Virus record (IMG/VR): IMGVR_UViG_3300047409_000266
Coordinates: 32,529 to 96,528 of that record
DNA length: 64,000 nt
Reading direction: 5' to 3' (one strand)
Source: a virus
Positions 4,531 through 63,173 of the stretch are shown one piece after another (position 1 is the stretch's first letter; each line of letters opens with the position of its first letter). The notes beneath the pieces are model-generated. The model saw only the letters and a program-made list of their open reading frames with translations, searched no databases and had not been told where the DNA came from. The position numbers and the translations under genes are program-made.

Positions 4531-4848
4531 GTGCTGATCCCCTGTGATATGGGCTCCGAATGTTACTGGCCAGCGTGCAATCTAGATTGCCGTGGGCGGA
4601 TCATGGAGGCCAAAACGCTTAGCGTGGCTGTGCCAATTGCCGATAAGGTAAACCGCTGCGAAACCTGTGGCGTCGATACCGACTTTATTCACGACCACAA
4701 GTCGGACAACTCCGGTTTAGATGACGGCCCTTACTTACCTGGGTGTAGGCCACGGAAGCGGCCAGTTCGCAGGGACGATCTTGGCGAGGTGCGCAAGCGG
4801 GCGTGGCAAACGCGGCGCACTAAATACGGCAGCAGGGGGCACAGATAG
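4531..4848 (+). CDS. hypothetical protein (RxRAWxTRRxKYG C-terminus)
   Basis: GTG after junction; in frame with ORF 4486..4848. Confidence 0.55.
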   Translation: MLIPCDMGSECYWPACNLDCRGRIMEAKTLSVAVPIADKVNRCETCGVDTDFIHDHKSDNSGLDDGPYLPGCRPRKRPVRRDDLGEVRKRAWQTRRTKYGSRGHR

Positions 4849-59813: not shown

Positions 59814-62800
59814 GTGGCAGGACAACTGTGGTCAATTCCTGCTGAAGGTGGGTACATGTACTCGGACGAATTGTCCGATGTGCTCCGCCAGCAGGTGCAG
59901 CCGCTGACAAAAATGCGTCAGCTCTGCGATGCCGAGGATGGGACAAAGAAAGGTCTCAACCGCGGTGATAAATATAACTGGGACGTCTACAGCAATGTTG
60001 GCACCCAAGGTCGACGATTGGATGAATCGGCACCAATCCCAGAAACGGGATTTACGATCATTCAACACCAGCTTACGGTTAGTGATAGCCGCACTCAGAT
60101 TTACGTTTGAGTGAAACACTGGGTTAATTCGGGGAAACTCTCTCTGAGACAATCCCGAGCCAAGCCGTCGACGTAGTGAGAAATCACCAGGGCGACGGAA
60201 GGTGTAACGACTAGGCGGTGAGGAAACAATAATCCGCCCACGAACACCCAGGACATTACTGCCAGTGGTCTAAAAACGCCTTTCGCTTCCGACGGAGGTA
60301 AATGGAAGCGTCTCTGTAAATCCAACTCAACACGTTAGTTTTCTTGCCGCCGGACAATCGCCACAGCTTATTTTCTTGATGGGCTTTGGTGAGCATCATG
60401 CCGGTATGAGAGAAGATCGCCGCGCGCAAGCCGTCGATCAACATTTCGGTCCCAGAGAAGCAGAACGACTTCGCTTTAACACTGCCATCACCATCGAGAA
60501 GCCCGCGCATGTAATGTCGTTCTAGGTGCTTTGGCACCTTGGAGTATTGCAGCGTGTGGCTCTTTCTAGGTGTGACGCCATGTTTGATGATGTCGCGTAC
60601 TAGCTTCTGGCTTCCGAAATAGATGAACTTGTAGGGGCCCCGATTGGGGTACTTCGGGTCTATCTCTCTCTGAAAAATGCGAGCGTTTGATCCCATCGCC
60701 GACCGGATATCCCGGAGGATATGGACGTCCCTCGCTTGGAGCATGAGAACAACAGAGCGGCCAGCAGACGGTATGGTTCCGTCGGCCGCAAGGAACCCTA
60801 GAATATAAGCCTTCTGTTCGGTATCGATCTTCTCGAAGAAGCTTTCATCGAGAGTGTATCGCCGTCGCACGCGGCTTCTATAAATCTCGGATTCGTGGCG
60901 ACGAGTTCTGATGGTCTGCTCGGTGCAATCGAATTTTGCAGCGAGTTCACTATCCGAATAGCGCTCTGTGAGTTGGAGCAAGGCATTCCCTGACGGGATA
61001 TCGTAACTGTACGGCCGCTCCTTCTGGATAAGGCCGTATTCCAGTCCCCAAAGCCGAATGCTTGAACGGTTGCAGCCAATCACGGCGGCAGCATCAGAGA
61101 TTGAGTGCGTTGCTAACAATGAACGGAGATCGTTCTTTGTTGGTCGTTTATACGGTTTTCCTGTCATTACTGAACCGTAAACCATTGTTGTATAATGTCA
61201 AGAGATAGTCTGAGCAGCCGCGCGAGCGGTTGATGCCGTGGATAAAGAGCTGCGGCGGTAACATCCTGTTATGAAGCTGGCAATTCGGTTTTCTAAAGGG
61301 AGCCGAAGTAAAATCGCGTGAAACGGGGAAACTCTCCACAAGCGGAGACAATCCCGTAGGAAGCCGCAGCGGGCATTTTGATGCTGCGGAACCTCTAGAG
61401 ACTAGGCTGTGAGTCCCAACAATAATCAGCCCACGAGCGCGCGACGCGAAAGCGAAAAGATAGTCCCATCAGCACGGTGACGTGTTGAAAGCCACGGATA
61501 AAGAGCCGCGGCGAAGAAGAAATGTCCCTACACCGGCAAGCTTGTTGCGTTGGCGAAGCATCAAGTCGCCGCGATCATCGACAAGACGCTAAAGGACGAC
61601 GCACGCAAGTACTTTGACATTGAAGCATTCCTTCAATTCAAAAATACAGCCTTGCGCGCCGCACCTTCTGGCGGAACCTCTGCTACCGCGATCACGCTCG
61701 ACACTGGTGGAACCTCTACCGTGACGAACAACCTCGCGCTTGGCACTGGTCACATCAAGGCCATCGTCGATGCGATGAAAGAAAGGAACATCCCACCGTT
61801 TACGGCGGATGACTACGTTGGTGTTTCTCATCCTTCGACATGGCGAAATCTCAAGAACAGTCTCGAAACAATACATCAGTACACAGAGACTGGTCTCGCT
61901 TGTGATGGGCGCCTCGCCGCGTGAGCGGTGAGTGATAATCTCGCTAATTGCTGGAACCCGCTTAGAGCCGAACGGCCACAGCGTAGCTCGTAAGGGCAAG
62001 CGCGAAGGGTGAAAATCGTTCGGATTGCGCAATCAGCAGCCGAGCCGCTAGATCAGCGGAAGGTTCAACGACCAGGGCGGAAGCCCGTAGGGGATAAGCA
62101 TCCCCGAAACGCGAGATGGCTCGAAAGAGTCAGTGATATGGTCTACTCTGCGATTCGAAAGACGCAGCAGGAGAAAGAGAAATGCCGAGAGGATTAGATC
62201 GGCCGACGTGCAGTATTGAAGGCTGCGACCGTCCACACTTTGGGCACGGCATGTGTAGTCTACATTATCAGCGTTGGCGATCTACAGGCATCACGACCCA
62301 TGAGATTGATCGGAAAGCAAAGTTATCCGTTCGAGAAATTATGGTCGAGATGTTGCTCGATGGCATTAGAGAGTTGGATGATGGGTGCTGGATTTGCACG
62401 ACTGCCTATCCCGGTAAGAAGGGATATCATAGACTGCAAGTCCGGCGCGGCAACGTGGTTCATCGCGAGATGGCGCACCGCGTTAGTTTCGAGCATTTCA
62501 AAGGGCATCTTGGCCCACGTATGCTCGTATGTCATTCATGCGACTATCCTCCGTGTTGTAATCCTGCACACCTGTTCCAAGGTACGCACGCTCACAACAC
62601 TCAGGATATGGTGAGAAAGCAGAGAGGTTTGGTTGGCGAACTAAATATGAATGCGTTGCTTACCGAAGCCAAAGTGCTTTCCATATATCAGGACGAAGAT
62701 TTTGGACTGACTAGAGTGGCAATTGCCAAAAAACACGGCGTCAATCCAGAAACTATTTCTCACGTCCTGAGCGGTCGCAACTGGAAACATCTCTTTCTGC

Positions 62801-63173
62801 GGCACAGGCACAGCGACCCTGTGTGAATTAGTGGCACATCTTCAACGGCGAAATCGGAAGATATGAGTCCTGTCGTTTTGTCGAGCAGACCTTCATCCCG
62901 AAGGGCGGCGCGGCGGATGCGACAGCAGCCGGAACATACGATCCATGGGGTGGCATTGCTGACCCATGGAACAACGGATTGTCGTCATGGGCTTTCATAC
63001 TTGGCGGTGATACGGTCACAGAAGCAATCTGCGTCCCAGAGGAAATTAGAGCTAAGATTCCAGGCGATTTCGGCCGCTCTCGCGGCATTGCTTGGTATTA
63101 TCTCGGAGGTTTTGGTCTGGTGCACACTGACAGCCTGAATGCTAGGGTTGTCATGTGGGACAGCGCAGCGTAA
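59814..63173 (+). CDS. major capsid protein (N4-gp56-like), spliced: join(59814..60079,61269..61289,61525..61900,62835..63173), 333 aa
   Basis: GTG start with SD AAGGAG; exons total 1002 nt and read ...QLTV|YEAGNSV|PYTGKL...TETGLA|HIFNGEIGRYESCRFVEQT...DFGRSRGIAWYYLGGF. Confidence 0.88.
60080..61268 (+). ncRNA. group I intron 1 in MCP gene (IA-like, ORF in P8)
   Basis: U-G splice pair CGGT|TAGTGATAGCCG; P7 GACTA(60209)/TAGTC(61206); P8 GACATTA/TAATGTC; terminal G 61268. Confidence 0.85.
60256..61185 (-). CDS. intron-encoded two-motif LAGLIDADG homing endonuclease with N-terminal HTH repeats, antisense to the intron
   Basis: YILGFLAADG and YMRGLLDGDG; start may be ATG 61167. Confidence 0.85.
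   Translation of the reverse strand: MVYGSVMTGKPYKRPTKNDLRSLLATHSISDAAAVIGCNRSSIRLWGLEYGLIQKERPYSYDIPSGNALLQLTERYSDSELAAKFDCTEQTIRTRRHESEIYRSRVRRRYTLDESFFEKIDTEQKAYILGFLAADGTIPSAGRSVVLMLQARDVHILRDIRSAMGSNARIFQREIDPKYPNRGPYKFIYFGSQKLVRDIIKHGVTPRKSHTLQYSKVPKHLERHYMRGLLDGDGSVKAKSFCFSGTEMLIDGLRAAIFSHTGMMLTKAHQENKLWRLSGGKKTNVLSWIYRDASIYLRRKRKAFLDHWQ
61290..61524 (+). ncRNA. group I intron 2 in MCP gene (235 nt, no ORF)
   Basis: P1 TTCGGT|...GCCGAA; IGS AGGGA pairs with 3' exon TCCCT (P10); P7 GACTA(61400)/TAGTC(61461); terminal G 61524. Confidence 0.9.
61901..62834 (+). ncRNA. group I intron 3 in MCP gene (IA2-like, ORF 3' of the core)
   Basis: P1 CGCT|TGTGATGGGCG; P3 ATCTCGC/GCGAGAT; P/Q AATTGCTGG/AATCAGCAG; P7 GACCA(62070)/TGGTC(62139); terminal G 62834. 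Confidence 0.85.
62182..62826 (+). CDS. intron-encoded HNH homing endonuclease (Zn-binding)
   Basis: CxxxGC...GMCxxHYQR N-terminus; AHRVSF...VCHSCDYPPCCNPAHLxxGTxxxNxxDM; C-terminal HTH; SD AGGAG. Confidence 0.88.
   Translation: MPRGLDRPTCSIEGCDRPHFGHGMCSLHYQRWRSTGITTHEIDRKAKLSVREIMVEMLLDGIRELDDGCWICTTAYPGKKGYHRLQVRRGNVVHREMAHRVSFEHFKGHLGPRMLVCHSCDYPPCCNPAHLFQGTHAHNTQDMVRKQRGLVGELNMNALLTEAKVLSIYQDEDFGLTRVAIAKKHGVNPETISHVLSGRNWKHLFLRHRHSDPV

Follow-up and report, generated by a model that had tools for sequence, protein, structure and literature searches.

A 21-nt exon between two putative group I introns in a viral capsid gene

Structure of the split capsid gene

The window, that is the whole 64-kb stretch of DNA analysed, forms the final part of an IMG/VR virus record of 96.5 kb that comes from a soil metagenome. 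A capsid gene at 59814-63173 on its forward strand was found to comprise four exons and three intervening inserts. Excision of 60080-61268, 61290-61524 and 61901-62834 gave a frame of 1002 nt, for which a protein of 333 aa is predicted. Exon 1 (59814-60079) has a GTG start with the ribosome binding site AAAGGAG 7 nt upstream and closes with CTT ACG GT; its 3' end is CTTACGGT, with the last base at 60079, and it was aligned to intact homologs from M/VAGQLW through QHQLTV. Exon 2 (61269-61289) is the 21-nt stretch TTATGAAGCTGGCAATTCGGT, read in frame as T, the codons TAT to TCG, and GT. It codes for the end of a Val codon, for YEAGNS and for the start of the next Val codon. Exon 3 (61525-61900) has the first bases TCCCTACACC at 61525 and runs in frame from T CCC TAC ACC to CTC GCT. 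Its end at 61900 and the start of exon 4 at 62835 were fixed by the consensus TETGLA/HIFNGEIG of 36 relatives. Exon 4 (62835-63173, stop codon included) was placed by alignment and matched the PHROG 1357 major head protein.

The joined frame aligned end to end with the intact genes of Escherichia phages PTXU04 and Bas95 and of Vibrio phage 1.232.O, and also with dozens of intron-free IMG/VR genes at identities of up to 88%. All three exon junctions matched the intact homologs residue for residue. The homologs carry the annotation major capsid protein. The closest named family was the N4-gp56 capsid family TIGR04387, to which the intron-free relative L005 scored 56.6 bits (E 2.4e-15), just beneath the NCBIfam cut-off of 60 bits. 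By sequence comparison, the gene is assigned as an N4-like major capsid gene.

The boundaries of exon 2 were read directly. Joining of the exons gave QHQLTV-YEAGNSV-PYTGKL, which was gap-free against the three reference phages named above and 40 intron-free IMG/VR relatives. The peptide spanning the included exon is LTVYEAGNSVPYTGK, and the skipped form would read LTVPYTGK. The seven residues (consensus xEAGNSV) were kept in 40 of 40 intron-free relatives and in all three reference phages, the pattern among the 40 being LT(V/I)-x-E-x-G-(N/H/Q)-(S/A)-(V/I)-P. Within a 36-sequence alignment, E91 and G93 were invariant, and N94, S95 and V96 were at least 90% conserved. The original prediction had proposed a micro-exon here, to be given up if homologs lacked the equivalent of the seven residues; such homologs were sought, every intron-free relative examined had the residues, and the micro-exon is upheld as real. 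Since all intron-free relatives examined and the three reference phages encode its residues, exon 2 is predicted to be a constitutive exon. A twintron or composite intron removing exon 2 as a unit was rejected because every homolog needs these residues. For the intron-free homolog L005, DSSP on the predicted structure suggests that they come after the strand 80-88 and ahead of the long helix 110-134, a placement too weak to lean on because of the low confidence of the model (mean pLDDT 59.9, residues 1-111 below 50).

Introns and their endonuclease genes

Intron 1 (60080-61268, forward strand, site A) is a group I candidate of 1189 nt (Rfam RF00028, E 1.9e-5). The guide GCCG lies at 60088-60091, the P7 strands at 60209-60213 and 61206-61210, and the terminal base is G (61268). 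The P8 stem, formed by GACATTA (60252-60258) and TAATGTC (61193-61199), encloses a 950-nt insert with an endonuclease gene, and 36 of 42 family consensus pairs are made. The gene (60256-61185, reverse strand, antisense to the intron) encodes a LAGLIDADG homing endonuclease with HTH of 309 aa. It matched Pfam LAGLIDADG_3 (PF14528) with 25.3 bits against a cut-off of 22.5, and PHROG 4645 with E 7.6e-47. The two motifs LGFLAADGT and LLDGDGS were present, and the match to the phage endonuclease family was full-length. A sigma-70 promoter scan around this antisense frame returned nothing above chance.

Intron 2 (61290-61524, forward strand, site C) has 235 nt and no open reading frame (E 2.7e-7). 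Its guide GCCGAA (61302-61307) makes a 6-bp P1 with UUCGGU, the last 6 nt of exon 2, and AGGGA (61297-61301) makes a 5-bp P10 with UCCCU of exon 3. The P7 strands lie at 61400-61404 and 61461-61465, and the terminal G at 61524. Intron 3 (61901-62834, forward strand; 934 nt, E 1.7e-9) is a different group I intron, with the pairing CGCU/GGCG at its 5' splice site and its final G at 62834. It bears an HNH endonuclease gene on the sense strand at 62182-62826 (Pfam HNH_3, PHROG 1872/59).

Among the introns at sites A and C, here and in relatives, the endonuclease genes were all on the strand opposite to the intron (5 of 5: window 60256-61185, L008:2967-3872, L004:3044-3760, L037:3167-3754 and L066:3034-3798). 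Two of these are of the LAGLIDADG and HTH type (PHROG 4645), namely the enzyme of intron 1 and that of the L008 site-C intron, which are 37% identical; the other three are HNH genes. In L004 and L037 the endonuclease insert stands directly after the guide sequence, not in P8. The terms antisense, opposite strand and opposite orientation do not appear in PMC3984707, a review on group I introns of bacteria from 2014.

The model RF00028 matched all three inserts with 31.6, 37.8 and 45.1 bits in order, all under its gathering score of 50 bits, which for introns 1 and 2 counts against the explanation preferred below. Related introns in L008, L066, L064 and L007 scored 50.7-69.9 bits. The exon U is paired with a guide G as a U.G wobble at the 5' splice sites, CGGU/GCCG for intron 1 and UUCGGU/GCCGAA for intron 2. 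All three introns finish in G, and their exact removal restores the capsid reading frame. The features that had originally been listed for introns 1 and 2 were all present: the Val codon is split as GT/T at both junctions of exon 2, CGGT precedes both 5' splice sites, and six blocks are common to the two introns (CGGGGAAACTCTC, GAGACAATCCCG, GACTAGGC, AACAATAATC, GATAGTC and GGATAAAGAGC). The P7 strands, GACTA/TAGTC, are the same in both.

A common fold of seven family introns from different phages contained 55 pairs with 95.6% of the cells paired, compared with 31-42% in the slid-partner controls. Changes on both sides were found at 25 pairs, a number as high in 0 of 500 shuffles. P7 is invariant across the family and hence uninformative either way on covariation. 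One covarying 5-bp hairpin (helix 8) was located between the 5' strand of P7 and the 3' strand of P3, which makes subgroup IA, defined by extra P7.1/P7.2 hairpins at that place, at most a candidate assignment. Because of the strong family covariation and the presence or absence of the inserts at exact nucleotides among relatives, their identity is beyond chance. Introns 1 and 2 are regarded, from their sequences, as related members of one covarying group I family, and are presumed to be self-splicing.

Insertion sites among related phages

Among the relatives, three distinct insertion sites were seen within the 21-bp stretch or at its borders, where most relatives are intron-free. Site A (LTV GT/N) alone was occupied in L007, by an ORF-less intron of 266 nt. 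Site C (NSV GT/Y) alone was occupied in the IMG/VR genomes L004, L008, L037, L066 and L113 and in the metagenome contigs L247/L252, L250, L251/L253, L254 and L255. Site B (GGT/AAC), inside the micro-exon, was occupied at L042:3305-3991 and L064:648-1306 by an insert of 660-690 nt, unrelated to the introns at A and C and carrying a sense LAGLIDADG gene; an Rfam search of the L064 insert gave no group I core. Such an insert would break the targets of both the site-A and the site-C elements. Exact-pattern scans of IMG/VR and the metagenome contigs, which divergent cases could escape, returned no second genome with both A and C. The only DNA run contained the source contig alone, with no exon joints and no intron-free variant, and is uninformative on splicing.

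More intron sites of the capsid family (L004:1671-2737, L007:2350-3430, L250:9082-9750, L068/L069:3114-3799 and L008:1848-2611) were seen near codons 6, 14, 35 and 54 and at codons 186/191, 221 and 307-311. Among soil phages, the capsid gene is a hotspot for introns. Several of the insertion sites coincide with the most conserved DNA windows of the gene, as expected of endonuclease targets. The stretch right after site C ranks fifth among non-overlapping 30-nt windows for conservation; the flank of site A has no special conservation.

A second micro-exon was observed in the same capsid family at L064:1893-1907, the 15-nt stretch CCCTATACTGCGGAT (PYTAD). It is flanked by group I introns at 1586-1892 (Rfam 69.7 bits) and 1908-2159 (53.2 bits), both exceeding the threshold of Rfam, and joining of the exons gives KERNIP-PYTAD-DYVGVSH in agreement with the intact homologs. 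In Vibrio phage 1.232.O (MG592596.1, L001:3088-4300) the deposited major capsid annotation ends at GVAWLH. An unannotated intron probably splits that gene at a W/YY site, because CGUGGU and GCCACG can form a pairing like P1 and an HNH gene lies downstream; introns of L007, L037 and L066 lie in the same region. The otherwise intact capsid gene of L054 has an in-frame TGA (4617-4619) in place of the invariant Trp305 codon TGG, which may reflect an error of sequencing, a pseudogene or the reading of TGA as Trp.

The relation between introns 1 and 2 was analysed by pairwise alignment and phylogeny of the two cores, one of the checks proposed with the original prediction. The identity of intron 2 was 93% with the site-C intron of L250, which has no ORF, and 92% with the core of L004, compared with 64.5% with intron 1. 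Intron 1 was 74% identical to the site-A intron of L007 and 67% to the codon-54 intron of L064. The maximum-likelihood tree split intron 1, the L007 site-A intron and the L064 codon-54 intron from all site-C introns with 100% bootstrap. The original prediction had also suggested local duplication, or reverse splicing of one intron to a near-cognate site; in the present gene that site would lie 21 nt away. The membership of one intron family, the shared CGGU context and the common core blocks agree with such an origin. The low mutual identity, set against the 92-93% that intron 2 shares with same-site introns elsewhere, and the fully supported split in the tree do not, and intron 1 is as close to a codon-54 intron of another phage. 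A recent local duplication is rejected on these grounds, and birth of one intron from the other within this genome is extremely improbable. The two introns thus appear as members of one family that colonised many sites of the capsid gene and not as recent mutual copies; an ancient transfer from one site to another during the history of the family may have occurred. The comparison is best read as two homing events, independent of each other, into a hotspot with three insertion sites in 21 bp.

The closest relatives by exon 1, L004 (99% protein identity) and L250 (95%), have the site-C intron only, and therefore the site-A intron was probably the second to arrive, an order drawn solely from these two relatives. 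In the exons within 59930-61644 of the window, the 17 nt 5' of site A had 0 mismatches to L007, compared with a difference of about 25% between the two genes elsewhere, and a stretch of 9 nt ahead of site C was identical in all carriers of a site-C intron. These mosaic flanks may fit homing with short co-conversion tracts, and P1 constraints could also produce the picture. A related proposal explains the persistence of the pair by joint transfer: on presumed cutting of an intron-free capsid gene by the endonuclease of intron 1, intron 2, which has no ORF, would be carried along. Intron 2 is 21 bp from the insertion site, well within a typical co-conversion tract, the exon flanks appear co-converted, and intron 2 lacks a gene of its own, while its orthologs in L004 and L037 have HNH genes. 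Trans-homing of an endonuclease-less intron has a precedent in T4, where passages of PMC2790892 describe mobE and the nrdB intron. However, the exact-pattern scans found no second double carrier, hence no sign of spread as a unit. Joint carriage of this kind is considered rather unlikely.

Expected inclusion and possible skipping of the 21-nt exon

The arrangement is very probably explained by independently acquired neighbouring introns at A and C, with exon 2 as the constitutive remainder between them. The capsid gene would hold two mobile group I introns at adjacent homing sites 21 bp apart, site A after the GT of LTV and site C after the GT of NSV, in the conserved stretch E-x-G-N-S-V-P-Y-T. 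Intron 2 would be an ORF-less form of the lone site-C intron of many related phages, and intron 1, with its antisense LAGLIDADG endonuclease gene in P8, would be the counterpart of the lone site-A intron of L007. The 21-nt exon would be a mere remainder between the introns, and a normal capsid protein would require its seven codons. With splicing in cis by each ribozyme, the outcome would be an mRNA of exons 1-2-3-4 and the 333-aa protein. Inclusion of exon 2 is expected to be the dominant outcome because intron 2 is compact, with a strong cognate P1 and P10, and because splicing of the second intron first makes skipping impossible in engineered tandems (PMC10136302). Intron 1 is probably slower because its folding must span the 950-nt insert.

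The possibility that exon 1 is ligated directly to exon 3 was weighed against this. The near-cognate character of the two 5' splice sites, already pointed out in the original prediction, was borne out: both guides contain GCCG, which can pair with CGGU, and skipping is for that reason judged chemically possible. As RNAduplex energies disregard the splice-site register, the registers were set manually. In the productive register, the guide of intron 2 made 4 bp, a mismatch and 2 bp with the end of exon 1, compared with 6 bp with its own exon. Between the two introns, the splice-site helices are unlike in P10 and at position -5. The chimeric core that had been envisaged for direct ligation is possible only in part, P7 and P9.1 cross-pairing perfectly; P3 (4/7), P6 (1/3) and P8 (0/3) failed.

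Skipping may occur as a side reaction, producing a non-functional mRNA shorter by 21 nt that only lowers the capsid yield, and this can hold together with the explanation by independent acquisition. In a stepwise route, intron 1 would be spliced first and intron 2 would then take ACGGU upstream for a distal 5' splice site; alternatively, a composite ribozyme could combine the 5' portion of intron 1 with the 3' portion of intron 2. The CGGU ending both 5' exons, the GCCG in both guides and the cross-compatible P7 and P9.1 speak for it, as do precedents by the same two routes in Twort orf142, Coxiella 23S rRNA and Tetrahymena tandems, as given in passages of PMC10136302 and PMC3073962. However, introns 1 and 2 resemble each other far less than the two Twort introns do, cross-pairing of P3, P6 and P8 fails, the differences at position -5 and in P10 are of the kind that suppressed skipping in the engineered system, and the compact intron 2 should splice ahead of intron 1. 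The side reaction is therefore held as a tentative possibility. A stronger form makes skipping a selected and regulated device, either for a second capsid isoform (LTVPYTGK) or for the timing of capsid production. Skipping does preserve the frame, and regulated alternative splicing was speculated for Twort in the passages of PMC3073962. Frame preservation follows, however, from the length of any 21-nt exon alone, and the seven residues, with their invariant E and G and the N, S and V conserved to at least 90%, are missing from none of the 36 aligned homologs. No other relative with the double-intron state turned up in the exact-pattern scans, and the design is thus not a conserved one. A selected device is highly improbable; the useful isoform without YEAGNSV that had been put forward is unlikely, because the skipped product drops invariant residues and the arrangement with two introns is not a conserved one. 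A very improbable variant is that the skipped fraction, made possible by the near-cognate CGGU sites and the shared P7 and P9.1, serves as a capsid brake or timer, perhaps modulated by antisense transcription of the endonuclease gene of intron 1.

Significance in relation to known systems

A short exon enclosed by tandem group I introns is an already documented arrangement, to which the window adds another case. Twort orf142 has three group I introns, of which introns 2 and 3 flank a 23-nt exon, and skipping was detected (Landthaler and Shub 1999, as summarised in PMC10136302 and PMC3073962); a single large ribozyme from the two similar introns was proposed (PMC10136302). Going by these summaries, both loci are phage protein genes with three group I introns and a related pair, of IA type in Twort, around a very short exon. 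At 21 nt, exon 2 lies within the short-exon range of about 20-35 nt of Twort-type pairs. Unlike the highly similar Twort pair, the two cores of the window are only 64.5% identical and have diverged in P3, P6 and P8; moreover, the gene is a major capsid gene with an antisense endonuclease in intron 1, and is known from sequence alone. In Coxiella burnetii 23S rRNA, introns flank a 34-nt exon and skipping was seen by RT-PCR (Hicks et al. 2011, as cited in PMC10136302). Two different group I introns likewise surround a short exon there, but, as far as that source describes it, in a bacterial rRNA gene and with introns of differing subgroups (IB2, IA3).

In tandem Tetrahymena introns engineered to flank a 24-nt exon, skipping took place by a composite ribozyme or a distal 5' splice site, and differing P1 and P10 favoured inclusion (PMC10136302). 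Both mechanisms would be candidates for the window as well, while those tandems are artificial, identical or designed pairs. Tiny exons are also found in organelles, with 1 nt between group I introns in placozoan cox1 (PMC5436844) and an 18-nt spacer in Ophiostoma cob-201/219 (PMC12308204). There, too, a tiny exon is cut off by adjacent group I insertions and has to be retained for a conserved residue or segment; unlike the window, these cases are mitochondrial, with no phage and no homing competition described. Phage genes with several introns are frequent in certain clades (PMC12363816). Jug phages, for instance, have genomes with about 18 group I introns each and a terL gene split into 2-3 parts, and resemble the present virus in the repeated invasion of essential phage genes by group I introns and endonucleases; unlike the window, the passages of that source on them mention no micro-exon and no exon skipping.

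The capsid locus points to no new mechanism. Its added value is a natural set of single-site and empty alleles, as the relatives with A only, C only, the third site between or no intron are natural controls. The locus also offers, in compact natural form, a test of the conditions under which a short exon is included or skipped by tandem group I ribozymes. Gene callers fragment this capsid gene and miss the 21-nt exon entirely, and recognising such arrangements therefore matters for the annotation of uncultured phages.
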